DNA of 22,748 bases from a virus (taxonomy: Duplodnaviria; Heunggongvirae; Uroviricota; Caudoviricetes). How positions within the stretch are numbered: position 1 is the first letter of the stretch; each line of letters opens with the position of its first letter. This document shows, one piece after another, positions 1,307 through 19,876 of this stretch. The notes beneath the pieces were generated by a model. It saw only the letters and a program-made list of their open reading frames with translations, made no database searches and was not told where the DNA came from. The DNA lies in the IMG/VR virus record IMGVR_UViG_2671180674_000012, positions 1 through 22,748 of that record; one strand, written 5' to 3'. The position numbers were made by a program, and so were the translations under genes.

Positions 1307-3628
1307 TTAAAAATCAACCTGACTCGGGATCAGTTTTTGCCAGATAGCTGAAACTTGTTTTGCCTGGTGGCGGGCATCATCCAGTGCATTATGGCGTACG
1401 CCTTCGAACGGAATAGCTGTTCTGGCATCGAAGTCTATGGCTTTTCCCAGATCAACGATTGTGCGCACATCGCGATCGTTGCAGTAACGCCACGGGCAGG
1501 GGATACCCTGCCGTTCATATGAACGGCGTAAAATCACGTTGTCGAAGCTGGCTCCATTTCCCCAGACCCGAACAAAAAATTCACCGGAGTTTTCGTCGAT
1601 AAATTCCCGCAATTGCAATAGTGCATCATCTAACGGAATTTGATTTACCAATATTGCAGATCTGGCCTCGCTGGACTGCGCCAGCCACCATTCGATTACG
1701 TCACCATCGGGAGTAGCACCTTTGTCCATTGCGTCAACCAGACTGATGACAACATAAAATATCGGTCCGATTTCCCCGGTCTGCGGATCGAAAAACACTG
1801 CAGCAATAACTACGATGGGCGCATTGCTGTTAATTCCCATCGTTTCAAGGTCGATCATCAGATGGTGCCATACCCTGCTGGTGGATGTGATAATGTGATG
1901 ACTGTTCACCGTAATTAAGGGATCTGCCGCCTCGCCCATCACCGCGCCACAATCAGGGCAGTTGCCGCCACCGCTCTGACCGCAGGCGGTGCAGACTTTT
2001 TCCGGTTCTTGTTGCTCTTCTGGTTCAGGCTGTTTCGTTTCTGGCTCGTTTTGTAACGTATTTGGGCTGTTCTGTTCCGCTTTCTGGTCGTTTTGTTCCG
2101 ATTCGGGCAGGTTCTGGTTCACAGAATCGCGGGTTTCAATCCCCTTAACCCATTTCGGATCATTCGGGTCGCTAATTCCGTCAACGAACTCACCGCGATG
2201 GACTGCCAGTATTTTGTCGGCATCAGGCTGGTTGATATTGGTTGCCTGCATAATTTTGTTTACTTCGTCAGCGGTAACTTTTACCTGTTTAACTGGATCT
2301 ACCTGTTCCTGAGTATCCAGCGATTGCGTGTCCTGGTGATGTTCAGTTGTATCCGGCTCCATTGCTTCGGCCGTTGCCTGTTCATCTGCCATTGCGTCAG
2401 ACGGTTGTGATTTTTCCTCATTATTTTTTTCTTCTTCTGTTTCGCGTTCAGCAGCCAGTTCGCGGTTAACTTCTTCCAGGATATCTTTTTCCGGTGTATG
2501 TCGTGCAGCAGCGAGAGTTTCCTCGGTAGGGTTCTCGTGATCAGTCTCCGTTAAATAGGCGTTGATATACCCCTGAAGGCGTCCCGGGTAATGATAAAAC
2601 TCAGGGTGTGCGCTCCGGATAAGTGCAAAAATAGCGGCGCGGGAATAATCCAGGATACCCGGGATTGCGCGAAGTGCTGCGGACCATTCTTTGAACGGAC
2701 TTTCTTTCTTCTGGACGACTTCTTTTGCGCGACGATAAACGCTGCCCGGAATTTCATAAATATTAAAATCCATCGGAAGTGTGGCCGCTGCAATCTCCAC
2801 ATCCAGCGTATCGAAGGTGTGTACTAAATTCGGATTGCGATCGGTTTTGTTCCCGCCACCGGCATTTGCACCGGAAGCCGTACGGGTGATACGCGAAACA
2901 CGATTTCCTTTCATCCACTCTTTTGTCAGCAGACCGCGATCGGTGTAGTCGGCGTCCAGGTATGCTTCGATAAAAGAAGTTATCAGTCCCAGGTCCGAAT
3001 TTACGGGGGCGGGGAAAACTTTGTCAGTGTCTCGCACCAGTTTGTGGAGATCGCGAATCTCCAGCGGTTCGAGTTGCGCTGCTTTATTTGAGATAGCCAG
3101 CGCGGTAACGGCGGGAAGTTTTTCATCCTGTGCGTTATGTAATGCGCGCAGTTCGTCCCGCGAAACGTGTGTGATCGGTTTTTCGCTGCCGTGCTGTGCC
3201 AGCCATCGAACAGGCAGAATCTGACCTGAAACCGGCAGGAGCATGTTCTCCTCAATCTCAGTCATGTCTTCGCTGTTGACGTTGGTATTGTCAGTGTTGG
3301 CTGGTTTGTCCTGCGCAGAGGGTGAGGGCGCGATAAATACCATTGTGATGCCATCTTCCCCGCCTTTTTCGTAACGGTTACAGAATTCAGTATCAAACAC
3401 GCCTTCAGGTGGAAGGTCATTCACAACGGGTAAATGGACGCGGACGGGTTTTTTAAAGTCGTCTTCATCATAATCGTTGTCATCCATTGCGGTAATGCAG
3501 CGGGAGATGGCAACAGATAATTTTTTTGCTGTAGTCCAGTAAAAACCACCTTTAATTCCAAGGCGTTTTCTGACTTTGTCATTTTTTGCTTCACAATATA
3601 ATGCAAATTCTTCTTTATCAGTGCTCAT
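1307..3628 (-). CDS. Large multi-domain exonuclease: acidic low-complexity linker, CxxC...CxxC zinc ribbon, C-terminal DEDDh-type 3'-5' exonuclease domain
   Basis: 773-aa ORF with GAGGT RBS. C-terminus carries DEDDh motifs (MIDLET, WGNGASFD, HNALDDARH). Middle region has CTACGQSGGGNCPDCG and a long E/Q/P/D-rich segment. Confidence 0.7.
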   Translation of the reverse strand: MSTDKEEFALYCEAKNDKVRKRLGIKGGFYWTTAKKLSVAISRCITAMDDNDYDEDDFKKPVRVHLPVVNDLPPEGVFDTEFCNRYEKGGEDGITMVFIAPSPSAQDKPANTDNTNVNSEDMTEIEENMLLPVSGQILPVRWLAQHGSEKPITHVSRDELRALHNAQDEKLPAVTALAISNKAAQLEPLEIRDLHKLVRDTDKVFPAPVNSDLGLITSFIEAYLDADYTDRGLLTKEWMKGNRVSRITRTASGANAGGGNKTDRNPNLVHTFDTLDVEIAAATLPMDFNIYEIPGSVYRRAKEVVQKKESPFKEWSAALRAIPGILDYSRAAIFALIRSAHPEFYHYPGRLQGYINAYLTETDHENPTEETLAAARHTPEKDILEEVNRELAAERETEEEKNNEEKSQPSDAMADEQATAEAMEPDTTEHHQDTQSLDTQEQVDPVKQVKVTADEVNKIMQATNINQPDADKILAVHRGEFVDGISDPNDPKWVKGIETRDSVNQNLPESEQNDQKAEQNSPNTLQNEPETKQPEPEEQQEPEKVCTACGQSGGGNCPDCGAVMGEAADPLITVNSHHIITSTSRVWHHLMIDLETMGINSNAPIVVIAAVFFDPQTGEIGPIFYVVISLVDAMDKGATPDGDVIEWWLAQSSEARSAILVNQIPLDDALLQLREFIDENSGEFFVRVWGNGASFDNVILRRSYERQGIPCPWRYCNDRDVRTIVDLGKAIDFDARTAIPFEGVRHNALDDARHQAKQVSAIWQKLIPSQVDF

Positions 3629-5161: not shown

Positions 5162-5323
5162 GTTATTGCTGTTGTGGATATCCAGATTGTTAAAGAGCAT
5201 GCCGGAAGGTTATCCGTGTCCGGCGCACGACCACACGTAGCAGCGTGTTGGTCTCCATTTTTAATTCACCCCTTAATGGAGGATAAAATAATCGTGGTGC
5301 TGGTCGGCTCGGTCCCGCAGGTG

Positions 5324-5959
5324 TTACCCTTTAAACCAGTCAATCCAGAGCGGATAGTGTTCAGCATAAATATAGCTATACACATCCAGGTTGTATTTGC
5401 GGTCTGTCCTTAGCAGGTCGCAAATACAGGCCGCAGCTTCCAGGGCAGCAGCTTTGTTGCTGAATAACCATGTAGCAACATTCCGGCGATTATCTGTATC
5501 CCACTCTTTTGTGAGGGCTGACACCACGAAGGAGCCGTTGGTGTTGCCATCAAATACTTCCGTTTCCAGATTTTTAAGTAATGCCTGGTGAATTTTTGCC
5601 AGGTATTCAGTCGGAATTTCGCCACGAATTCGGATAAGTTTGTCATAAACAAACATGTTCCCCGCATATGGCGATTTTTCTTTCTTTTGTTCACTGGCAG
5701 GCTGGTCAATTTCGTCTTCGGTTGGTTTCGTATTGATGTTTTGCACTGTCGTTTCTGCAATTTTCTTTGCCACACTCTCTGAGTCGTGTTTATTTACAGG
5801 CGCACAGGAATACAGTCCGACAAACGCATCTCGCACATTTCGAGCCATATTATCAGTGTCTTTTTTCGTTACCGATTCCAATGCAAGTTCGTTCAGACGT
5901 TGACGTAGTGTGTGTACTGCAATCTCCTGGATTGATAGCGATAAATCTTTAAATTCCAT
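5324..5959 (-). CDS. Hypothetical early-left protein (211 aa)
   Basis: ATG at 5959 with GAGGT RBS, 11 nt downstream of the preceding gene's stop (operon arrangement). No family recognised. Confidence 0.55.
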   Translation of the reverse strand: MEFKDLSLSIQEIAVHTLRQRLNELALESVTKKDTDNMARNVRDAFVGLYSCAPVNKHDSESVAKKIAETTVQNINTKPTEDEIDQPASEQKKEKSPYAGNMFVYDKLIRIRGEIPTEYLAKIHQALLKNLETEVFDGNTNGSFVVSALTKEWDTDNRRNVATWLFSNKAAALEAAACICDLLRTDRKYNLDVYSYIYAEHYPLWIDWFKG

Positions 5960-5970
5960 CGTTAACCTCA

Positions 5971-6123
5971 TCAGTCAGTATTTCTGGCTAACCAGCGACG
6001 CGCGCCAGCTTCGGTTTTAAACGTTTTGCTTTTTGTATACGTCATCGCGGTGAACGTGCCGTCCTGGTTTGGGAACACGCCGTATACCAGAGATTCGTTG
6101 TTGCCAAGATCGATAGTATCCAT
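5971..6123 (-). CDS. Small hypothetical protein (50 aa), first gene of the early-left operon
   Basis: ATG at 6123 with GAGGT RBS, immediately downstream of the pL-like promoter; product MDTIDLGNNESLVYGVFPNQDGTFTAMTYTKSK... Confidence 0.4.
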   Translation of the reverse strand: MDTIDLGNNESLVYGVFPNQDGTFTAMTYTKSKTFKTEAGARRWLARNTD

Positions 6124-6878: not shown

Positions 6879-7163
6879 ATGAGCACTACATACAAAAACA
6901 TTACAGAAAAGGCAGTTATGGTTATTGGTTCTCCCTCTGCTGTAAGTCGCATGTTTGGTTTCAAATCGCCTCAATCCATTTTTAATTGGATTATCAGGAA
7001 CAGGGTTCCTAGTGAGAGGGTTATTAGGCTTTGTGAGCTTGGGGAATGGATTGTTACTCCGCATGATCTCCGGCCTGATTTACACCCTACTCCAGTTAGT
7101 GGGATTCCAGAAGAAGTTATCAGATCCAAAAAAATAGGGTTGATTCATGAAAATCAAGCATGA
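6879..7163 (+). CDS. Cro-like / YdaS-family HTH protein
   Basis: ATG 6879 with GGAG RBS. Motif SIFNWIIRNRVPSERVIRLCELGEWIVTPHDLRPD resembles YdaS-type Cro proteins (GxxQxVxQWxxxxRVPxER...ELRPD). Confidence 0.6.
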   Translation: MSTTYKNITEKAVMVIGSPSAVSRMFGFKSPQSIFNWIIRNRVPSERVIRLCELGEWIVTPHDLRPDLHPTPVSGIPEEVIRSKKIGLIHENQA

Positions 7164-7572
7164 ACACATCCGTATGGCGATGAATGCCTGGGCGCATCCG
7201 GACGGTGAAAAAGTTCCGGCAGCTGAAATAACCCAGGCTTATTTTGAGTTGGGGCTGACGTTTCCTGAACTGTACGACGACAGCCATCCGGAAGCCCTGG
7301 GCCGTAACACCCAGAAAATTTTCCGCTGGGTGAAGAAAGACACTCCTGATGCGGTTAAAAAAATTCAGGCGTTGTTACCAGCGATCGAAAAAGCAATGCC
7401 GCCTCCGCTGGTGGCCCGAATGCGCAGCCACAGTTCCGCTTATTTTCGGGAGTTGGTAGAGACGAAGGAACGGCTGGTGAAAGATATTGATGATTTCGTT
7501 GCATCAGCGATCGTTCTGTTCGATCAGATGAATCGTGGTGGCCCGGCAGGAAACACTCTGGCTGTGCATTAA
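7147..7572 (+). CDS. YdaT-like protein (CII-position regulator of Rac-type prophages)
   Basis: Begins MKIKHEHI, which I recall as the YdaT N-terminus; overlaps the cro-like gene's end; Rac-like order racR-ydaS-ydaT. Confidence 0.5.
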   Translation: MKIKHEHIRMAMNAWAHPDGEKVPAAEITQAYFELGLTFPELYDDSHPEALGRNTQKIFRWVKKDTPDAVKKIQALLPAIEKAMPPPLVARMRSHSSAYFRELVETKERLVKDIDDFVASAIVLFDQMNRGGPAGNTLAVH

Positions 7573-9428: not shown

Positions 9429-10157
9429 ATGAAAAATATTGCGGCAGGTGGTGTTCTTGAGCGTATCCGTAAGCTGGCCCCGCAGCATGTAACCGCGCCG
9501 TACCGGACAGTGGACGAGTGGCGAGAGTGGCAGCTTGCAGAAGGGCGAAAGCGTAGTGAGGAAATTAACCGCCAGAATCGCCAGATCCGGGTGGAGAAAA
9601 TTATGAAGCGTTCCGGTATCCAACTGTTGCACCAGAAGTGTTCGTTTGCGAATTACCAGGTGAAGAACGATGGCCAACGCCACGCGCTGAGCCAGGCAAA
9701 ATCCATCGCGGAAGAAATGATGACCGGATGCACAAATTTCGTGTTCAGCGGTAAGCCGGGTACCGGAAAGAATCATCTGGCAGCAGCCATTGGCAACCAT
9801 CTTCTGGCGAAAGGTCGCAGCGTGATTGTGGTGACGGTGGCGGATGTGATGCTGGCGTTACACGGCAACTACGACAACAAAAACTCGGGCGAAAAATTTT
9901 TGCAGGGGTTGTGTGAAGTTGACCTGCTTGTCCTGGATGAAATTGGTATGCAGCGGGATACGCGTAACGAACAGGTCACACTGAACCAGATAGTCGATCG
10001 CAGAACAGCCTCGATGCACAGCGTCGGGATGCTGACGAACCTGAACCATACGGCAATGAATACGCTGCTTGGCGAGCGCGTGATGGATCGCATGACCATG
10101 AACGGTGGTCGCTGGGTGAATTTTAACTGGGAGAGCTGGCGTTCAAATGTTGGTTAG
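9429..10157 (+). CDS. DnaC-like helicase loader (AAA+ ATPase)
   Basis: Walker A FSGKPGTGKNHLAAAIG and Walker B LLVLDEIG; position after the initiator as in lambdoid replication modules (Rac ydaV-like). Confidence 0.8.
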   Translation: MKNIAAGGVLERIRKLAPQHVTAPYRTVDEWREWQLAEGRKRSEEINRQNRQIRVEKIMKRSGIQLLHQKCSFANYQVKNDGQRHALSQAKSIAEEMMTGCTNFVFSGKPGTGKNHLAAAIGNHLLAKGRSVIVVTVADVMLALHGNYDNKNSGEKFLQGLCEVDLLVLDEIGMQRDTRNEQVTLNQIVDRRTASMHSVGMLTNLNHTAMNTLLGERVMDRMTMNGGRWVNFNWESWRSNVG

Positions 10158-12063: not shown

Positions 12064-12191
12064 AGCGATAAACAAACTGACAATAAGACACTGAAATTTA
12101 AATCAGAAGTGATTTTTATTAAATCCTTAACCGGAGGGATTTCTGCACCCTCAAAACATCAGGAGGCCGCCCGAAAGGGCGGTAATAAATA

Positions 12192-12782
12192 ATGCAAGAC
12201 ATCAAAGAAAATATCAGACAACAGCTTTACGGGTTTTATATTGCTTATGATTTGTGGCTGAGTAATGGGGCGAAACCAGGTGGGGTGTTTTCTCGAAATT
12301 ATGGTTTATGCGCCAATCTTTTCGATTATCTCACATCAATCGGTGCCTCCAGCGAAGCGGCACTGGAACAATTACACGCTGATTTCAGAAGTGCCGGGCT
12401 GAATGAGGTGTTGCCATTTAACGAGAGTAATGGGCATTACCATGAAGAAAAAAGGAACAACATGTGCCATGTGAATCCGGCGCGGGTGGCGTGGGTCAGG
12501 GCGCAGATTGCACTGGTATCACTGGAAGCAGAGCCGATAGCAGTAAGCGACGACATGGCTTACGCATTCCATCATGCACTGTCAGATTCATCGTCAGGTG
12601 CTGATGAGGTAGAGGAAATTAAGGCCGGGTTGCGTGCAGCCTTTGCCAATGTCACCGTCCAGCCGGTACTGATAGTGCCGGATGAAATGGATTTGCTTAC
12701 CTGCCATCTCGACGGTGTAACTGAAACATATGCTGATGGCTGGAACGCCTGTCGCGCCGCCATGCTTAAGGGAGATAAATAA
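12192..12782 (+). CDS. Hypothetical protein (196 aa)
   Basis: ORF preceded by an AGGAGG element and a GAAA-tetraloop hairpin; no family recognised. Confidence 0.55.
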   Translation: MQDIKENIRQQLYGFYIAYDLWLSNGAKPGGVFSRNYGLCANLFDYLTSIGASSEAALEQLHADFRSAGLNEVLPFNESNGHYHEEKRNNMCHVNPARVAWVRAQIALVSLEAEPIAVSDDMAYAFHHALSDSSSGADEVEEIKAGLRAAFANVTVQPVLIVPDEMDLLTCHLDGVTETYADGWNACRAAMLKGDK

Positions 12783-13366
12783 TGATTAATCGAACCAAAC
12801 TGGAGCACATTCTCGAATATGCCAGGCTGCAGAAATGTATTGGGCAACTTTGTAAAATTCCACCAGGAGATATGGTTGAAATCGTGGAAATGGCCATGCG
12901 TAAGGCTGGCAACTCTCCGGTAACTCCGGCTCGCCTGCCTGGTGGTTTCACCATTGAGGATGCGAAGGAGTTACATGAAGACTTGGTACGCAGCCACATA
13001 AGCCAGGCTTTAAGTTGTGAGAGGATGAAAAAGAACGATCGCGATGCTGATTTGCGCTGGATTCATGGCGTTATAGTTCAGGCCGCGTGGTTTGTAAAAG
13101 CGTCACTGGAGCAGAATGCGCTAACGGGCAACTCTCCGGTAACTCCGGCTGGCTGGATAAGCTGTAGTGAGCGAATGCCGGAAAAGAATCAGAACGTACT
13201 TATTTCGGTGAATTTTGATAGCTCTCTGGTTGAACCGCTAATATGCTCCGCACGCTATACCGGAAGCACATTCCGGCGCGGAGATGCAACGATTAAGCCG
13301 GGTAATGGTATTGAGTCGGCAACTCACTGGATGAAATTACCGGAACCGCCGCAGGAGGTGAACTGA
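12782..13366 (+). CDS. DUF551-like prophage protein with an internal duplicated GNSPVTPA segment
   Basis: GGGAG RBS; start overlaps the upstream stop (TAATG). C-terminal WISCSERMPE...VLISV...ATHWMKLPEPP resembles DUF551; contains the 24-bp exact direct repeat. Confidence 0.55.
   Translation: MINRTKLEHILEYARLQKCIGQLCKIPPGDMVEIVEMAMRKAGNSPVTPARLPGGFTIEDAKELHEDLVRSHISQALSCERMKKNDRDADLRWIHGVIVQAAWFVKASLEQNALTGNSPVTPAGWISCSERMPEKNQNVLISVNFDSSLVEPLICSARYTGSTFRRGDATIKPGNGIESATHWMKLPEPPQEVN
12908..13151 (+). repeat. 24-bp exact direct repeat (GGCAACTCTCCGGTAACTCCGGCT) at 12908-12931 and 13128-13151
   Basis: Read directly from the sequence; both copies lie inside the DUF551-like CDS and encode GNSPVTPA. 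Confidence 0.8.
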
Positions 13367-13758
13367 TGAATGAAGGCGACAATGTTATCACCCTGGTGCA
13401 GCCAAAATCAGAAGAGGAAGAACTTCTCAACGTTGTGATAACCGACGAAAAAAGCGTCGAGCAAAAATGCTGTCAGCATTTCCGTACAACAATTTCAGAA
13501 GTGAATCGTACGATTACCTGCAAACGGTGTGGATTGGCTTTAGATCCGTTTGAACTTGTTCTCGACCGTGCGAGAAACGGTGAAAACATCGTGTCAGAGA
13601 TTAAATCACTCTATACAAAGCGGGATGCTCTTCGTGAAGCTGTGGCAAAACTTGAACGTGAAGAGAAAAACGCCAAAGCGCGGTTACGAGCAGTCAGGAC
13701 AGCAATACTGTATGCGGAAAATGACCTTAAAAATATTGAGCAGGAGGTGAATCGATGA
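13366..13758 (+). CDS. Hypothetical protein with zinc-ribbon-like motif (130 aa)
   Basis: GGAGG RBS; start overlaps the upstream stop; CCQH...CKRCG motif and a coiled-coil-like C-terminus. Confidence 0.5.
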   Translation: MNEGDNVITLVQPKSEEEELLNVVITDEKSVEQKCCQHFRTTISEVNRTITCKRCGLALDPFELVLDRARNGENIVSEIKSLYTKRDALREAVAKLEREEKNAKARLRAVRTAILYAENDLKNIEQEVNR

Positions 13759-13832
13759 CCGAAGCATTCACAACGGCAGGAATTGCGATGGCGGTGGCGC
13801 TGGTGGTGTATTCGATTTGCCGCTGGGGATAA
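13755..13832 (+). CDS. 25-aa hydrophobic peptide (MTEAFTTAGIAMAVALVVYSICRWG), translationally coupled
   Basis: ATGA overlap with the upstream stop; strong GGAGG SD 8 nt upstream; followed directly by a terminator. Absent from the ORF track because it is under 60 aa. Confidence 0.35.
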   Translation: MTEAFTTAGIAMAVALVVYSICRWG

Positions 13833-13842
13833 CAAACAAAAA

Positions 13843-13868
13843 CCCCGGATTGACGGTCCGGGGTTTTT
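13843..13868 (+). terminator. Rho-independent terminator ending the early plus-strand gene run
   Basis: Stem CCCCGGA/TCCGGGG with 7-nt loop, then TTTTT. Confidence 0.5.
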
Positions 13869-14206
13869 GAAGGAAACAAACAGAAACAACAATTGCCGTT
13901 ATCTGTTGCCACCAATGACAAGTAAACGTATCTCAGGCGAGCGCATTGCGCCGTTCTGACGCGGATACATTAGCCTGGGCAGAAGGTTCTGGCAATAAAA
14001 AATAGCGTTTTCTTATCGGTGTCGGTAAGATTGTTGCGGGTGCTTGAGGCTGTCTGCCTCGGGCATGCCACTGTAAGGCAGACAGAGAAAAGCCCCAGTT
14101 AACATCACGCGTCCTGCAAGACGCTTAACATTAATCTGAGGCTCAATCCATGCTGAACACATGTAGGTTAGCCTCTTACGTGCCGAAAGGCAAGGAGAAG
14201 CAGGCT

Positions 14207-14362
14207 ATGAAGCAGCAAAAGGCGATGTTAATCGCCCTGATCGTCATCTGTTTAACCGTCATAGTGACGGCACTGGTAACGAGGAAAGACCTCTGCGAGG
14301 TACGAATCCGAACCGGCCAGACGGAGGTCGCTGTCTTCACAGCTTACGAATCTGAGGAGTAA
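14207..14362 (+). CDS. hok: Hok/Gef-family type I toxin (HokD/RelF-like membrane peptide)
   Basis: Product MKQQKAMLIALIVICLTVIVTALVTRKDLCEVRIRTGQTEVAVFTAYESEE is near-identical to Hok/Gef peptides as I recall them; AAGGAG RBS; structured leader and own terminator. Confidence 0.8.
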   Translation: MKQQKAMLIALIVICLTVIVTALVTRKDLCEVRIRTGQTEVAVFTAYESEE

Positions 14363-14432
14363 GAGACCTGGCGGGGGAGAAATCCCTCGCCACCTCTGAT
14401 GTGTCAGGCATCCTCAACGCACCCGCACTTAA

Positions 14433-14452
14433 CCCGCTTCGGCGGGTTTTTT
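14433..14452 (+). terminator. Rho-independent terminator after hok
   Basis: CCCGC-TTCG-GCGGG followed by TTTTTT. Confidence 0.55.
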
Positions 14453-14587
14453 GTTACGATTATTTTTAATCAAACAGGCTTTTTGTGTTTTTGTGATTTG
14501 TTGTTCTTGAGGCTAATTACGGGGGAAATAGAATCTCATTACTTGATTGGCGCGCAGGGAGAAGAAGGATGGTCCCCTTAAGGGGAG

Positions 14588-14782
14588 GTGTTTAAAGTTC
14601 ACGGGATTTTGGTTATGAACGATAAGGAATTAATTGCTGCGCTTTCTATACCAGGTAATTATGAAGTAATAGTTCTTGAGAATGGTGAGTTTATCGTAAT
14701 GCCATTGCCATCCGATGTTATTCTGATCACCAAAGAATCACATGCGGATTCGGTCAGTCACTTCAGCATTAAGAAAGACTAG
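14588..14782 (+). CDS. Small hypothetical protein; start uncertain (GTG 14588 or ATG 14615)
   Basis: ORF of 64 codons; the SD-like AGGGGAGG lies at a poor distance from either candidate start. Confidence 0.3.
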   Translation: MFKVHGILVMNDKELIAALSIPGNYEVIVLENGEFIVMPLPSDVILITKESHADSVSHFSIKKD

Positions 14783-14848
14783 ATTATAATGTTGTAGTTA
14801 AAGCCAGCCTGAACAACTGGCGTCTGTCGCACCATTACGAGGATAGTA

Positions 14849-15121
14849 GTGGTGCATTACAAGAAAATTAACAATTCTGATGCCGCCCCTGCCAGCAGAT
14901 ACGGGCGGCGTTCTCACACATTCAAATATGACTGGTATCAGCATGCCCCCTGCACTGAAGAACAGGCCGAATGGCTGATACAGAACTACCGCAGACGTGG
15001 GTATGAGTTTAGGAAAGCCCTCAGCCTCGATTATCGTCACTGGATAATCTCCGTCAGGCTTCCTTACTCCGAACGCCCACCGCGTCCGTCCCGCACATAC
15101 CAGCAACGCATCTGGAGATAA
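14849..15121 (+). CDS. Hypothetical protein (90 aa)
   Basis: GTG start with GAGGA upstream; its stop is 1 nt before the DUF968 gene start. Confidence 0.45.
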   Translation: MVHYKKINNSDAAPASRYGRRSHTFKYDWYQHAPCTEEQAEWLIQNYRRRGYEFRKALSLDYRHWIISVRLPYSERPPRPSRTYQQRIWR

Positions 15122-15122
15122 C

Positions 15123-16172
15123 GTGCGGGTATTACTTCGACCTGTTCTGGTACCGGAACTTGGGCTGGTTATCGTTAAGCCAGGCCGTGAATCCATGCAG
15201 GTATTCCATAACGGCAGGGTGCTGGTGGAGCCGGAACCGAAAAACATGCGCGGTCTGCCGTCCGGAGTCGTTCCTGCCGTTCGCCAGCCGCTGGCGGAAG
15301 ATAAAACATTGCTGCCGTTTTTCAGCGATGAGCGTGTGATTCGTGCTGCTGGCGGCGCTGGCGCACTGTCTGACTGGCTCCTGCGTCATGTTAAATCCTG
15401 CCAGTGGCCTCATGGAGACTATCACCACAGTGAAACCGTCATACATCGTTACGGTACCGGCGCAATGGTGTTGTGCTGGCACTGCGACAACCAGCTGCGC
15501 GACCAGACATCCGAATCACTCGGGCAGCTTGCTCAACAAAATCTGACCGCCTGGATGATTGACGTCATACGTCACGCAATAAGTGGTGCACAGGAACGGG
15601 AATTATCGCTGGCTGAATTATCCTGGTGGGCGCTCTGCAATCAGGTAGCGGACGCACTACCGGAGGCAGTATTACGTCGTTCTCTGGGGTTACGCGCGGA
15701 AAAAATCCACTCAGTATACCGCGAGAGTAACATCATACCGGGAGAACAGACAGCCACCAGCATACTGAAGCAGCGCACAAAAAATTTTGCGCCGTTGCCT
15801 CACGCCCACCAGCAACAGAACCCACCACAGGAAAAGACGGTTGTAAGTATCACAGTTGATCCGGAGTCACCGGAATCATTCATGAAGCGGCCTAAACGTC
15901 GCCGCTGGGTGAATGAGAAATACACGCGCTGGGTAAAGACACAGCCGTGTACGTGTTGTGGTAAGCCAGCAGACGATCCCCATCACCTGATTGGTCACGG
16001 TCAGGGCGGAATGGGGACAAAAGCCCACGATATTTTTACGTTGCCGCTGTGCCGGGAACATCACAACGAACTTCATGCAGATCCGCAGGCGTTCGAAGAA
16101 AAGCATGGTTCTCAGGTTGATTTAATTTTTCGTTTTCTTGATCACGCCTTTGCAACTGGCGTACTCGGATAA
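15123..16172 (+). CDS. DUF968-family prophage protein with C-terminal HNH-like zinc-binding motif
   Basis: C-terminal CTCCGKPADDPHHLIGHGQGGMGTKAHDIFTLPLCREHHNELH; sits upstream of rusA and Q as ydfU does in Qin-like prophages. Confidence 0.6.
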   Translation: MRVLLRPVLVPELGLVIVKPGRESMQVFHNGRVLVEPEPKNMRGLPSGVVPAVRQPLAEDKTLLPFFSDERVIRAAGGAGALSDWLLRHVKSCQWPHGDYHHSETVIHRYGTGAMVLCWHCDNQLRDQTSESLGQLAQQNLTAWMIDVIRHAISGAQERELSLAELSWWALCNQVADALPEAVLRRSLGLRAEKIHSVYRESNIIPGEQTATSILKQRTKNFAPLPHAHQQQNPPQEKTVVSITVDPESPESFMKRPKRRRWVNEKYTRWVKTQPCTCCGKPADDPHHLIGHGQGGMGTKAHDIFTLPLCREHHNELHADPQAFEEKHGSQVDLIFRFLDHAFATGVLG

Positions 16173-16184
16173 AAGAGGTTACTG

Positions 16185-16559
16185 ATGGGGATAGAATTTG
16201 TTTTGCCTTACCCGCCGACGGTAAACACCTACTGGCGACGCCGTGGCAGCACATATTTTATATCGGAAGCCGGTAAGCGTTATCGCCGTGATGTGGCACT
16301 TATAGTTCGCCAGCAGAGGCTGAAATTAAACCTGTCCGGAAGGCTGGCGATAACGGTTATTGCCGAGCCTCCGGATAAGCGCCGTCGTGATCTGGACAAT
16401 ATCCTGAAAGCGCCACTGGATGCACTGACACATGCGGGGTTGCTCATAGACGATGAGCAGTTTGATGAAATCAATATTGTGCGCGGTCAGCTCGTTCCTG
16501 GTGGGCGGCTGGGCGTGAAGATTTACGAAATAATGCATGACGGGCAGGTCCAAAAATGA
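16185..16559 (+). CDS. rusA: RusA-family Holliday junction resolvase
   Basis: LPYPPTVNTYWRRRG...PPDKRRRDLDNILKAPLDALTHAGLLIDDEQ matches the RusA signature; AGAGG RBS. Confidence 0.85.
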   Translation: MGIEFVLPYPPTVNTYWRRRGSTYFISEAGKRYRRDVALIVRQQRLKLNLSGRLAITVIAEPPDKRRRDLDNILKAPLDALTHAGLLIDDEQFDEINIVRGQLVPGGRLGVKIYEIMHDGQVQK

Positions 16560-17377
16560 AACTGGAAGATTTACCGAAATACTATTCCCCAAAATCGCCA
16601 GGCCTGACTGATGTATCCGCCTCGACGTCAAAAGATGCACTGAGTATCACTGATGTGATGGCTGCGCAGGGGATGACACAGAACCGGGCTGAGATGGGAT
16701 TTTCTGCGTTCCTGGGGAAAATGGGTATTAGTATGAATGACAGGGTGCGGGCAACAGAATTACTGACAGATTATGCATTAAGTCAGTGCGATCGTGTGGC
16801 GGCGTTAAGGAAACTTCCGGCAGAAATAAAACCGGCAGTGATGCGTATTATGGCTTCGTATGCTTTTGAGGATTATGCCCGCAGCGCAGCGAGTAAAAAG
16901 CAGTGCCCTTGTTGCCATGGGGAAAAATTTATTGAAAGCGAAGTTTTTACAAACAAGGTTCAGTATCCGGATGGTAAGCCGCCAGTATGGGCAAAGTGTA
17001 CAAAAGGCGTGTATCCGTCTTACTGGGAAGAATGGAAAAAAATCCGGGAGGTGGTGAAAGTTTCCTGTCCTGAATGTAAAGGGAAGGGGGAGATCTCCAC
17101 TGCCTGTAAAGACTGCCGTGGGCGTGGTGTTGCCATTCATCGTGAAGAGTCAGAAAAACGGGGTATGCCTGTTATCAGGGGCTGCCGGCGTTGTGGCGGT
17201 CGTGGCTATGAAAGACTGCCATCAACGGAGGCATTTAATGCCATATGCAAAGTGACGAGTGCTATCACGCTTGATACATGGAAAAAATCAGTGAAACGCT
17301 TTTACGATACGTTGGTGGTTCGGTTTGACATTGAAGAGGCATGGGCGGAGCGGCAGTTAAAGATGGTAACGCGATAG
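16556..17377 (+). CDS. Putative late antiterminator (Q-like) with four CxxCxGxG zinc-finger repeats
   Basis: ATGA overlap with rusA; CPCCHGEKF, CPECKGKG, CKDCRGRG, CRRCGGRG; positioned directly upstream of a promoter/terminator pair. Identity as Q is inferred from position. Confidence 0.55.
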   Translation: MKLEDLPKYYSPKSPGLTDVSASTSKDALSITDVMAAQGMTQNRAEMGFSAFLGKMGISMNDRVRATELLTDYALSQCDRVAALRKLPAEIKPAVMRIMASYAFEDYARSAASKKQCPCCHGEKFIESEVFTNKVQYPDGKPPVWAKCTKGVYPSYWEEWKKIREVVKVSCPECKGKGEISTACKDCRGRGVAIHREESEKRGMPVIRGCRRCGGRGYERLPSTEAFNAICKVTSAITLDTWKKSVKRFYDTLVVRFDIEEAWAERQLKMVTR

Positions 17378-17382
17378 TGTTG

Positions 17383-17410
17383 TTGATTTTTCCCGAATCT
17401 GTGGTAAATT
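17383..17410 (+). promoter_or_regulatory. pR'-like late promoter
   Basis: TTGATT (17383-17388), 16-nt spacer, TAAATT (17405-17410), immediately after the Q-like stop. Confidence 0.4.
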
Positions 17411-17458
17411 CGCCCTAACGATGGGCGTTTTGTGCCTGACGTTAGCGTGATTTCTACA

Positions 17459-17481
17459 ACCCGCCAGCGAGCGGGTTTTTT
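17459..17481 (+). terminator. tR'-like terminator downstream of the late promoter
   Basis: Short GC stem (CCGC/GCGG, loop CAGCGA) followed by TTTTTT; an earlier hairpin CGCCC/GGGCG with TTTT lies at 17411-17431. Confidence 0.5.
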
Positions 17482-17642
17482 GTTGTGATAGATAACAACT
17501 CCAGGTGGCATTCATTAGTGAATATTAGTTAATGTGTGCTGCCATGCGTTAAAAGATGTCAATTCGTTATTGACCGATATCAAATTATGGAAAGATGAAT
17601 TTCATTACTATTGAAAATCCGTTGTTTCAATAGGTGATATTT

Positions 17643-18359
17643 ATGCATAAACTAATTAAGCTGTTTTCATTTTTTATTGCACTATCGATATCTCAGTGTT
17701 ATGCCACTAGTAATGAATTCATAAGCGCCAGTAACAGTAGGGCATTTTCATTTTTTTTGCCTACAGGGCAAGCAATGGCTATCCAGTATCTTGATGGACT
17801 TAAAAGATATTCAGCGAGTGAGATTATAGACGATTTCAATAATAATGAATTGAGAGCAAAGAAAAAGTATAAAGATATATTCATCATAAACTCAACAGCG
17901 CGGGCGATTAAGCAAGACCTTGATGATAGGTTTTTTGTTCTGCTAAGGGATGGTAATAGTGGATTTGAATCGTTTTATGCTTACTATGATAAGAAATCAG
18001 AAGGTGACTTAGAGTTTCTTAACGAAGGTGATAATGTGGAGTTTATTTGCTCCAATGTTAAAAACATCATTATGCCAAGAGCGGAATGTTTTTCTATCGC
18101 TTTAAATCTTGAATCTAAAAATATTCAGGGAAACCCTATAAGATTTTTTGATAATGCTTATAAGTTGCAAAACACTTATAAGGCTACAAAAATAACATTT
18201 ATACTTTATTCTCTTCTGAAGGATAAAATTGAAAAGGACTGCGAAGAATCTATTGAAGCATGCAACCTGGCTGCCAGGAGGTTTACGGATAATGGCGCAT
18301 TACTTGACTCCATGCTTGAACCTTATGCGGATATGTTAAGTAAAATCGGTAACAATTAA
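17643..18359 (+). CDS. Secreted protein with Sec-type signal peptide and OB-fold (tRNA_anti-like) domain; AT-rich cargo
   Basis: AGGTGA RBS 5 nt before ATG; N-terminus MHKLIKLFSFFIALSISQCYA; central region resembles the tRNA_anti-like OB-fold pattern from memory; markedly AT-rich. Confidence 0.55.
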   Translation: MHKLIKLFSFFIALSISQCYATSNEFISASNSRAFSFFLPTGQAMAIQYLDGLKRYSASEIIDDFNNNELRAKKKYKDIFIINSTARAIKQDLDDRFFVLLRDGNSGFESFYAYYDKKSEGDLEFLNEGDNVEFICSNVKNIIMPRAECFSIALNLESKNIQGNPIRFFDNAYKLQNTYKATKITFILYSLLKDKIEKDCEESIEACNLAARRFTDNGALLDSMLEPYADMLSKIGNN

Positions 18360-18481
18360 CAAGGTTACATTCCAGGCATCCTGCCAGGGCTGCTTTTTTT
18401 ACCTCATTTACATCTATTGCTTGCTGGCTTTTTGGACAAGAGTTATTGGTATGTCACGTTAACCAGAAAAGGAAAAAAGAC

Positions 18482-18679
18482 ATGCTAAAACAGCAGGATA
18501 TGACCGAAACCGCCAGAGTGGTGTTTAATGAGTTAAGCGTCACCGAACCGGCGACCGTCGGGGAGATTGCACAGAATACTTACCTTTCACGCGAACGCTG
18601 CCAGTTAATACTGACCCAGCTTGTTATGGCGGGTCTGGCAGATTATCAGTTCGGTTGTTACAGACGCCTTTCGCAGTGA
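18482..18679 (+). CDS. Small HTH/winged-helix-like protein (65 aa), possible controller-type regulator
   Basis: ATG with AAAGGA RBS; TVGEIAQNTYLSRERCQLILTQLVMAGL is HTH-like; directly upstream of the methyltransferase. Confidence 0.45.
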   Translation: MLKQQDMTETARVVFNELSVTEPATVGEIAQNTYLSRERCQLILTQLVMAGLADYQFGCYRRLSQ

Positions 18680-18692
18680 AGGCTTTTTTATT
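18665..18692 (+). terminator. Putative terminator overlapping the HTH gene stop
   Basis: GCCTT-loop-AAGGC followed by TTTTTTATTT. Confidence 0.4.
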
Positions 18693-18829
18693 TGTGGTAA
18701 TGGGCGGCTGGTGGGTGTTAGCGGCACCTGCCAGCCATCTGCTCATGCGTTGGGGTCACAAGCAAACCTCAGGCCCATCTGCTTTGCGCAAAAGCGGAAT
18801 GAGCCTATCAGAGAAGTGCTTATTGATCT

Positions 18830-19876
18830 ATGATTAATACTGTAAAAATATCCAGTTGTGAGTTAATCAACGCTGATTGCCTGGAATTTATCCAGACCTT
18901 ACCGGAAAACTCTGTCGATCTGATAGTCACAGACCCGCCATACTTTAAAGTGAAGCCCGAGGGCTGGGATAACCAGTGGAAGGGCGACGCTGATTACCTG
19001 CAATGGCTGGACCAGTGTCTTGCGCAGTTTTGGCGGGTATTAAAACCCGCCGGAAGTCTTTACCTGTTCTGTGGTCATCGCCTGGCATCTGACACCGAAC
19101 TCATGATGCGTGAACGTTTTAATGTGCTGAACCACATTATCTGGGCGAAGCCGTCCGGACGCTGGAATGGGTGCAACAAGGAAAGCCTGCGGGCGTATTT
19201 CCCGGCAACAGAGCGCATTCTGTTTGCCGAACATTATCAGGGGCCATACCAGCCCAAAAGTGACGGTTATGCAGCAAAGGGGCGCGAGCTTAAGCAGCAT
19301 GTCATGGCCCCGCTGATTTCTTACTTTCGTGATGCGCGCGAATCACTGGGGATAACGTCAAAACAGATAGCAGAAGCCACCGGAAAGAAAAACATGGCTT
19401 CGCACTGGTTTGGTACCAGTCAGTGGCAGTTACCGAATGAGGCCGATTACAGTAAACTGCAGGCGCTGTTTGCACGTGTGGCGGCAGAAAAACACCAGCG
19501 CGGTGAACTGGAGCAGCCACACCACCAGCTGGTCAGCACATACAGCGAACTGAACCGGCAATATGCCAGCCTGCTGGAGGAATACAAATCACTGCGGCGT
19601 TATTTTTCCGTATCGGCTGTCGTTCCTTATACGGATGTCTGGACGCACAAGCCCGTGCAGTATTATCCGGGTAAGCATCCCTGTGAAAAACCGGCGGATA
19701 TGTTGCGTCAGATAATTACTGCCAGCAGCCGTCCAGGCGATTTGGTCGCAGATTTTTTTATGGGGTCGGGGTCGACAATAAAAGCGGCACTGTCGCTGGG
19801 ACGCAGGGCGATTGGCGTGGAACTGGAAGAGGAACGTTTTAATCAGACGGTCAGAGAAATAACGAAAGATTTTTAA
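18830..19876 (+). CDS. DNA methyltransferase, N6-adenine/N4-cytosine type, beta-class motif order
   Basis: DPPY catalytic motif near the N-terminus (LIVTDPPYF) and AdoMet motif FFMGSGST near the C-terminus; 348 aa. Confidence 0.85.
   Translation: MINTVKISSCELINADCLEFIQTLPENSVDLIVTDPPYFKVKPEGWDNQWKGDADYLQWLDQCLAQFWRVLKPAGSLYLFCGHRLASDTELMMRERFNVLNHIIWAKPSGRWNGCNKESLRAYFPATERILFAEHYQGPYQPKSDGYAAKGRELKQHVMAPLISYFRDARESLGITSKQIAEATGKKNMASHWFGTSQWQLPNEADYSKLQALFARVAAEKHQRGELEQPHHQLVSTYSELNRQYASLLEEYKSLRRYFSVSAVVPYTDVWTHKPVQYYPGKHPCEKPADMLRQIITASSRPGDLVADFFMGSGSTIKAALSLGRRAIGVELEEERFNQTVREITKDF

Follow-up and report, generated by a model that had tools for sequence, protein, structure and literature searches.

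An unnamed family of phage microproteins with a predicted membrane helix, represented by a small open reading frame upstream of hok/sok in a lambdoid prophage

Small hydrophobic proteins of enterobacteria and their phages

The small inner-membrane proteins of enterobacteria act by binding a larger membrane protein. A peptide for which a comparable mode of action may be proposed is encoded by a small open reading frame (ORF) at positions 13755-13832 on the plus strand of a 22,748-nucleotide (nt) stretch of viral DNA, the whole of IMG/VR record IMGVR_UViG_2671180674_000012 as analysed here and referred to below as the window, which is a lambdoid prophage. With KdpF and PmrR (29 amino acids (aa) each), YohP (27 aa), MgtS (31 aa), and AcrZ (49 aa), the peptide shares the size class, a single hydrophobic helix, and a history of missed annotation. 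There is no sequence relationship with any of these proteins; the best score was that of the KdpF model TIGR02115 (E = 0.024, 14.7 bits), which is below its cut-off of 26.85. Unlike the KdpF-type proteins, the peptide is phage-borne and coupled to early phage genes, and its neighbour genes vary. It is a new, unnamed representative of the small membrane proteins, and nothing about it is mechanistically unprecedented.

Two other groups of small proteins invite comparison. The type I toxins Hok, ShoB, DinQ, TisB, and Ibs are likewise short hydrophobic peptides with a single helix, and the small ORF adjoins a hok/sok unit. The small ORFs of the exo-xis and nin regions of lambdoid phages (orf60a, orf61, orf63, orf73, ea8.5, and ea22) occupy the same neighbourhood as the peptide gene; their products are soluble. 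They have been described without a membrane helix (PMC10789677, PMC10834534). In N-dependent early operons, the peptide gene follows genes of the Ea22-like/DUF551 type, in phage VT1-Sakai upstream of xis-int and in the window within the nin-like region.

Mini-membrane proteins of the Pf3 coat type, with an N-out/C-in orientation, are inserted by YidC. With its short acidic N-terminus, about 18 hydrophobic residues, and an R-W cytoplasmic end, the Pf3 coat protein resembles the peptide, as an analogy only: the two are not homologous, and the peptide is not a virion protein.

The small ORF and its 27-aa family

The region of the small ORF in the window reads GAGCAGGAGGTGAATCGATGACCGAAGCA. It comprises 25 codons and a TAA stop codon (13830-13832), and its product is MTEAFTTAGIAMAVALVVYSICRWG. 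A Shine-Dalgarno (SD) sequence, AGGAGG (13742-13747), is located on the same strand inside the last codons of the upstream gene and is separated from the ATG start (13755-13757) by a spacer of 7 nt. The start codon overlaps the TGA of the upstream gene (13756-13758) in an ATGA sequence (13755-13758), a start/stop arrangement that is typical of translational coupling. Both the strong, ideally spaced SD and the overlap that the initial annotation had described are present at these positions. The combination of such an SD with a short ORF is rare in the window: GGAGG or AGGAG at 5-12 nt upstream was seen for 4 of the 488 ATG or GTG codons that open ORFs of 20-60 aa on either strand, one of them being the start of hok and one that of the small ORF. 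The sole other hydrophobic ORF of 20-60 aa with a strong SD, a 39-aa ORF at 5294-5413 (+) with the product MVLVGSVPQVLPFKPVNPERIVFSINIAIHIQVVFAVCP, lies within a longer plus-strand frame and opposite a 215-aa ORF at 5324-5971 (-), and is probably spurious. The initiation region of the small ORF is not more structured than shuffled sequence (z = +1.2), and a sequence scan gave no promoter-like site opposite the small ORF or just upstream of it.

The portable junction upstream of the small ORF, including the SD, is GCAGGAGGTGAAnnATGA. A sequence of the form GCAGGAGGTGAA-nn-ATGA occurs twice in the window, at 13350-13369, where the DUF551 gene meets the phrog_1621 gene, and at 13740-13758, where the latter meets the small ORF. 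In other phages, too, the small ORF follows this junction, there behind unrelated genes. Such a sequence would seem to mark a boundary shared between modules and to provide the SD as well as the stop/start overlap.

The peptide consists almost entirely of a hydrophobic core of 18 residues, F5-C22 (13767-13820, plus strand; FTTAGIAMAVALVVYSIC), with a mean Kyte-Doolittle hydropathy of 1.99. This core is predicted to form a single transmembrane helix, in agreement with the transmembrane-like helix noted initially, and places the product among small membrane proteins of less than 50 aa with one such helix. The usual product of the family to which it belongs has 27 aa and reads M-[T/S/N]-W-P-E-A-F-x-x-x-G-x-A-x-A-x-A-[L/F]-x-x-Y-S-I-C-R-W-G. 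Residues E5, A6, F7, G11, A13, A15, Y21, and W26 are invariant or nearly so, and A17, R25, and G27 are highly conserved as well. The WPEAF motif is partly fixed by one of the two 14-mers that served as search anchors; it is kept as well in loci retrieved with the other anchor. A hydrophobic stretch of 17-18 residues with a mean Kyte-Doolittle value of 1.7-2.8 was found in all 38 distinct peptides, and in one variant the helix contains an in-frame AM-repeat expansion, AMAMAMAMAMAV (listed with P0048). The peptide is charged only at E5, close to its N-terminus, and at R25, close to its C-terminus, a placement that suggests, by the positive-inside rule, an N-out/C-in orientation in the inner membrane. 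The spacing of G11, A13, A15, and A17 fits helix-helix packing. The peptide stretch named for targeted mass spectrometry is MTWPEAFTTVGIAMAVALVVYSICR.

The window carries an unusual allele of this gene. An in-frame deletion of 6 nt between 13760 and 13761 removes W3 and P4, which are present in 66 and 68, respectively, of 69 unique 27-codon ORFs. The product consequently starts with M-T-E-A-F and does not have the N-terminal M-x-W-P-E-A-F motif of the family; E-A-F is kept despite the loss of the two residues. G9, A11, A13, and A15 of the window peptide correspond to G11, A13, A15, and A17 in the 27-aa numbering, and the core together with the end Y-S-I-C-R-W-G-stop is retained, FTTAGIAMAVALVVYSIC plus RWG being identical or nearly identical to the consensus. 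The window copy also has its own (A)GGAGG SD and the ATGA (or 1-nt) overlap that accompany the family. By its core, C-terminal end, and initiation signals, the small ORF is a member of the unnamed WPEAF...CRWG family of phage microproteins from which W3-P4 is missing. The 25-aa allele was seen only in the window and in an identical twin, IMG/VR contig L190, which is 100 % identical to positions 12109-19449 of the window.

The family is widespread in Escherichia coli and its phages. The reading frame was found by tblastn in 91 phage records, among them 933W, VT1-Sakai, VT2-Sakai, Min27, BP-4795, and many phages encoding Shiga toxin (Stx) 1 or 2. A blastn search of complete E. coli genomes revealed copies at 3024 places in 1589 of 5426 genomes, i.e., roughly 29 %, with up to seven copies per genome; the window copy is 88-93 % identical to E. 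coli copies at the DNA level. In addition, 520 IMG/VR contigs match the back-translated peptide pattern. The 181 plasmids with a copy (tblastn) come from Escherichia (155), Salmonella (25), and Klebsiella (1). They are mostly about 90-130 kb in size, 174 of the 181 are non-mobilizable, and one Salmonella plasmid that was inspected is of the IncY (P1) type, on which basis they are read as P1-like phage-plasmids. A gapped-pattern scan of contigs of species-representative genomes yielded nine loci, eight of which are chance matches in unrelated taxa and one of which is from Escherichia sp.; the family is not present in most species representatives, a result that says little about its wider taxonomic range. 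A copy that is 96 % identical to the Escherichia-type peptide is found in record PP818812.1, labelled Actinobacillus phage vB_Apl-pPE4; this host is odd, and the record may be mislabelled or contain contaminating sequence.

Conservation of the unit was analysed for 192 places in 191 loci, which represent 129 distinct contexts from -200 to +300. The initial annotation had named conservation of the frame in relatives as the check on its proposal and frameshifts or stops in homologues as evidence against it. Intact copies, with frame, start, SD, and a stop at the same codon, occur in 126 of the 129 contexts, and the proposal withstands this check. The start codon is ATG in 122 and GTG in 4 of the 126, and the stop, always at the same codon, is TAA in 114, TGA in 11, and TAG in 1. 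In 114 of the 126 contexts, the start codon overlaps the end of an upstream ORF of 50 codons or more by the 4 nt of ATGA; (A)GGAGG at a spacing of 7 or 10 nt was seen in 112. The flanks vary and form 23 upstream and 24 downstream clusters. Among the upstream genes are several for Ea22-like/DUF551 proteins, those of phrog_1621, phrog_660, and phrog_2814 ("eaa"), and others without Pfam domains. In an IncY phage-plasmid from Salmonella, the 84-nt ORF (L298, 2501-2584) fills an 85-nt gap in the PGAP annotation between the end of eaa at 2501 and the start of the next coding sequence at 2587. Divergent clades, with aa identities down to about 58-67 %, keep length, frame, hydrophobicity, SD, and overlap. 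The SD plus the 27 codons recur, in the sequences compared, as a portable cassette that is placed behind unrelated genes and before unrelated flanks.

The pattern of nucleotide changes is that of a coding sequence. Along a minimum spanning tree of 59 unique sequences, 108 synonymous and 96 non-synonymous changes were counted in the frame of the ORF, a synonymous fraction of 0.53 where 0.27-0.28 was expected. Omega is about 0.32 in this frame (p = 1.5e-15), or 0.34 when the two 14-mer search anchors are left out (p = 1e-11), and about 1.4-2.5 in the other two plus frames and in two of the three minus frames. The mean BLOSUM62 score of replacements is +0.14 in the ORF frame as compared with -0.5 to -1.5 in other frames, and indels left the frame intact in three independent cases (-6, -6, and -9 nt) and shifted it in one. 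Conservation of an RNA structure was dismissed because the covariation in an RNAalifold analysis of ten diverse copies was near zero (-4.9 kcal/mol, covariation term 0.02). By its conservation and substitution pattern, the small ORF is a conserved, selection-maintained protein-coding gene and not a chance ORF, and it is very probable that the gene is real and translated.

The description of the small ORF as unannotated holds for RefSeq/PGAP, which has no call in any of the rows inspected, as had been expected for peptides of this kind. It does not hold for GenBank as a whole, where a few entries for the 27-aa form exist as "bacteriophage protein" or "hypothetical protein" of 27-28 aa (AOM45384.1, ASL59396.1, ETI78407.1, ASL58468.1, EIL24003.1). 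These sporadic entries belong to the same family as the small ORF, and none carries a family name or a function; the peptide has been called sporadically and never been named or studied. In a collection of 15 billion proteins, exact matches exist for the 27-aa consensus and for several clade variants, and none for the 25-aa allele of the window and two variants. Searches of Pfam, NCBIfam, and PHROGs assigned the peptide to no family; as a positive control, hok from the window was recovered by its match to phrog_251. Apart from KdpF, the weak scores obtained were a match to phrog_38566 for one clade only (E = 0.0065) and sub-cut-off matches to DUF883_C (E = 0.04-0.08). A phmmer search of the whole library with the 30-aa in-frame translation of the window returned only 12 cluster representatives. 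Each of them is this peptide, carrying an aberrant extension or a frameshift fusion, and none points to a distant family whose function is known.

Among the longer forms are the rare ORFs P0038 (41 aa), P0040, P0041, and P0049 (78 aa), in which an Ea22-like or eaa-like N-terminal part is in frame with the peptide, apparently through 1-nt changes at the ATGA overlap. Clusters at 90 % identity (P0003-P0036, P0013, P0018) lump the peptide with DUF551 proteins of 121 and 185 aa. The idea of a DUF551 fusion was rejected as an artefact of clustering and naming: the 121-aa and 185-aa proteins end in ...PEPPQEVNQ and lack the peptide, no match to PF04448 (DUF551) was found in the peptide, and upstream genes other than DUF551 genes are equally followed by the peptide gene. 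Partial entries of 30-31 aa, consisting of the peptide and 3-4 upstream residues, are misnamed "DUF551 domain-containing protein, partial" through name propagation.

Proposed role and rival explanations

Taken together, the small ORF is read here as a genuine, translationally coupled micro-gene for an inner-membrane microprotein that makes a specific contact, a reading to which we assign a probability of roughly 0.6. Translation would be coupled to that of the preceding early gene by the strong SD in the last codons of that gene and by a restart on the ATGA stop/start. Because the SD is its own and the restart takes place on the stop of the preceding gene, the peptide would be made together with the early genes of the N-dependent operon, i.e., whenever the N-antiterminated early operon is transcribed on infection or induction. 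It would then insert into the inner membrane as little else than one transmembrane helix. The WPEAF, G11/A13/A15/A17, and CRWG elements would serve a specific helix-helix contact with another membrane protein, or with the peptide itself, and not non-specific damage. By analogy with the KdpF-type proteins, the peptide might, early in the development of the phage, bind and modulate a larger membrane protein of host or phage origin; binding to such a partner is a tentative proposal.

Several observations weigh against this interpretation. The window copy lacks two near-invariant residues, and its allele may be impaired. An omega of about 0.3 represents moderate constraint only, and the spanning-tree count is no full phylogenetic model and ignores recombination. 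Retrieval of the loci relied on exact 14-mers from within the ORF or on the peptide pattern and so favours conserved and intact copies. Three copies are broken, by a 1-nt deletion just after ATGAC in vB_EcoS-689R5/L185 and, in two independent cases, POCJ13 and L145, by a TGG-to-TAG change of codon 3. The summed Hessa-scale dG is close to 0, a borderline value for insertion into the membrane: it amounts to about +0.5 kcal/mol for the window peptide and to about +0.1 for the commonest form, the peptides of the family ranging from about -2.8 to +3.1 kcal/mol. No copy was found in lambda between ea22 and ea8.5, nor in the K-12 prophages DLP12, Rac, and Qin (e14 and CPS-53 were outside this check), from which it follows that the gene is accessory. 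The peptide sequence was found in no paper or supplement, some supplements having been covered in part.

The two copies with the nonsense change at codon 3, in the Shigella phage POCJ13 (L006, about 790-873) and in L145, are otherwise divergent, and the remaining frame is intact and hydrophobic in both. The exo-xis literature that was checked does not mention the small ORF. The peptide is not known to be listed in the small-protein catalogues of model organisms either, plausibly because lambda, DLP12, Rac, and Qin have no copy.

A more detailed version of the proposal, which we regard as possible and rather doubtful, combines a mobile cassette, recombined behind unrelated early genes of Stx/lambdoid phages and P1-like phage-plasmids, with one of two functions. 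The peptide could be a microprotein for a specific host target, e.g., a transporter or sensor, with a part in superinfection or the lysis-lysogeny decision. Alternatively, it could be a stoichiometrically co-translated tether of Ea22/DUF551-type proteins, at which the fusions P0049, P0040, and P0041 hint.

The main rival explanation is that of a membrane-damaging toxin which, like a type I toxin peptide or a holin, would act on the inner membrane upon expression of the early operon, by depolarising or permeabilising it. Size and composition are like those of the ShoB, DinQ, TisB, and Ibs-type toxins, the SD is strong, and hok/sok is often adjacent: it follows directly in 48 of the 126 contexts, and 15 more have, after the stop, a terminator of the type beyond which hok lies in the window. 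This adjacency is common and not obligatory, and nothing ties the peptide functionally to hok. The organization of the gene differs from that of a type I toxin, which is kept in check by an antisense RNA and has its own promoter and a limiting, translation-blocking leader. The small ORF has neither a recognisable promoter of its own nor a structured 5' untranslated region; it is coupled to ordinary early genes and has an open ribosome-binding site. Opposite the ORF, scans revealed neither an antisense RNA family nor a site resembling a promoter, and the sole Rfam match at gathering score in 13300-14700 is the sok of the neighbouring hok; a novel RNA is beyond such scans. The peptide matches neither Hok/Gef nor any other toxin family in Pfam, NCBIfam, or PHROG, its conserved polar end motifs WPEAF and CRWG point to specific contacts, and in phage-plasmids the gene has a mid-operon position. 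A toxin is therefore considered unlikely.

It could also be the act of translation that matters and not the peptide, with ribosomes at the stop codon modulating termination, shielding the message at its 3' end against Rho or RNases, or being passed on to the next gene. In the window, the TAA of the small ORF is separated by 4 nt from a terminator hairpin (13837-13869) with a stem of 15 bp, an A-run before it and a T-run after it, which is bidirectional in form; the terminator that the initial annotation had placed immediately after the small ORF is this hairpin. It has a folding energy of -23 kcal/mol (z = -4.2), and none of 200 shuffled sequences folds as well. In contexts other than those with hok/sok, inverted repeats of several unrelated sequences follow, which were read by eye as hairpin terminators and not folded, or the next gene starts 2-4 nt past the stop. 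The hairpin of the window type is present in 15 of the 126 contexts and is not a constant part of the family. The 24 downstream flank clusters are unrelated and therefore offer no common regulatory structure, and it is the aa sequence that is under purifying selection, with conservative replacements and with length and end motifs kept; these points make an effect of translation alone very unlikely. A leader peptide or attenuator was rejected on the same unrelated flanks, a covariation of about zero, and the constrained aa sequence.

According to a further explanation, the ORF would have no function and would be a hitch-hiking remnant, for instance the detached tail of an Ea22/DUF551-type gene or a boundary of recombination, that owes its persistence to recent spread and not to selection. 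Its site at the recurrent module junction GCAGGAGGTGAAnnATGA, the many near-identical copies (58 of the 126 contexts encode one single peptide), the rare fusions with upstream ORFs (P0049 and P0038), and the three broken copies would be in line with this. Against it, clades with about 58-67 % aa identity keep the features of the unit and show an excess of synonymous change, and the DUF551 proteins of 121 and 185 aa do not contain the peptide, so that a mere remnant is highly improbable. A programmed frameshift fusion with the upstream gene has little in its favour: inspection of GGTGAATCGATGACC by eye shows no slippery heptamer, and the genes upstream differ.

A conserved coding unit on the minus strand, e.g., the 64-aa ORF at 13727-13921 (-), has a negligible probability: the antisense frame has the same synonymous excess (omega about 0.31) and is open over the 84 nt in 55 of 59 variants, but such a signal is expected to be mirrored in any frame whose third codon positions coincide with those of the plus frame, an antisense ORF with any start codon covers the region in only 41 of the 126 contexts and would end in unrelated flanks, its replacements are less conservative (BLOSUM62 -0.51 against +0.14 for the sense frame), and SD, ATGA, and stop-codon conservation are all on the plus strand.

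Surroundings of the small ORF and meaning of the family

The window starts with genes for an integrase (1-1020) and a RecE-like exonuclease (1307-3628), both on the minus strand. Further on are a cII-like gene (7147-7572), a DnaC/IstB-like replication gene (9429-10157), a DUF1627 gene followed by a gene for a DUF551 protein (12782-13366), the 130-aa ORF upstream of the small ORF (13366-13758), and the gene for antiterminator Q (16556-17377). The order of the operon is cII, replication genes, DUF1627, DUF551, the phrog_1621 gene, the small ORF, the terminator, hok/sok, DUF968, RusA, and Q. By this gene order, the small ORF is the last of a series of accessory genes within the nin-like part of the rightward early operon and stands before the terminator, as had been proposed from the window alone. 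The 130-aa upstream product is a phrog_1621 protein without a Pfam domain. It has a cysteine pattern CC-x22-C-x2-C followed by a long, charged, coiled-coil-like tail, and its end, EQEVNR, resembles the end PPQEVN(Q) of DUF551 proteins.

Downstream of the terminator, about 150 nt (13870-14020) without a convincing ORF separate it from sok (14038-14212; Rfam match, 114 bits) and hok (14207-14362; phrog_251 match, 6e-33), which accords with the position directly upstream of the hok unit given initially. Phages of the 933W type have neither this spacer nor the terminator; in them, the stop of the small ORF is followed directly by the promoter region of hok. At 14371-14452, the hok transcript, with its 3' end and its terminator, is covered by an Rfam match to isrK that is below threshold (30.5 bits against a gathering score of 50). 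The best match of the whole window in a complete E. coli genome has a coverage of 63 % and an identity of 94.7 %; none of these genomes matches the whole window closely.

In conclusion, the gain in practice is modest, a further conserved representative of the small membrane proteins. The family is also a test case for small-ORF annotation, since an ORF of 84 nt that has a strong SD, overlaps its neighbour by ATGA, and is clearly under purifying selection has repeatedly been left as an "intergenic gap"; standard annotation omits the peptide and no study was found that mentions it. If the peptide is made, an early-expressed membrane protein is encoded by many clinically important Stx prophages, of which enterohaemorrhagic E. 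coli genomes contain several copies, and by P1-like phage-plasmids found in E. coli and Salmonella. With a specific host target or as a tether, it would be an unrecognised player in the early development of Stx phages, with a gene present in about 29 % of complete E. coli genomes. As a testable candidate, the peptide would join the poorly understood exo-xis and nin accessory gene sets that influence lysogeny, induction, and host physiology.

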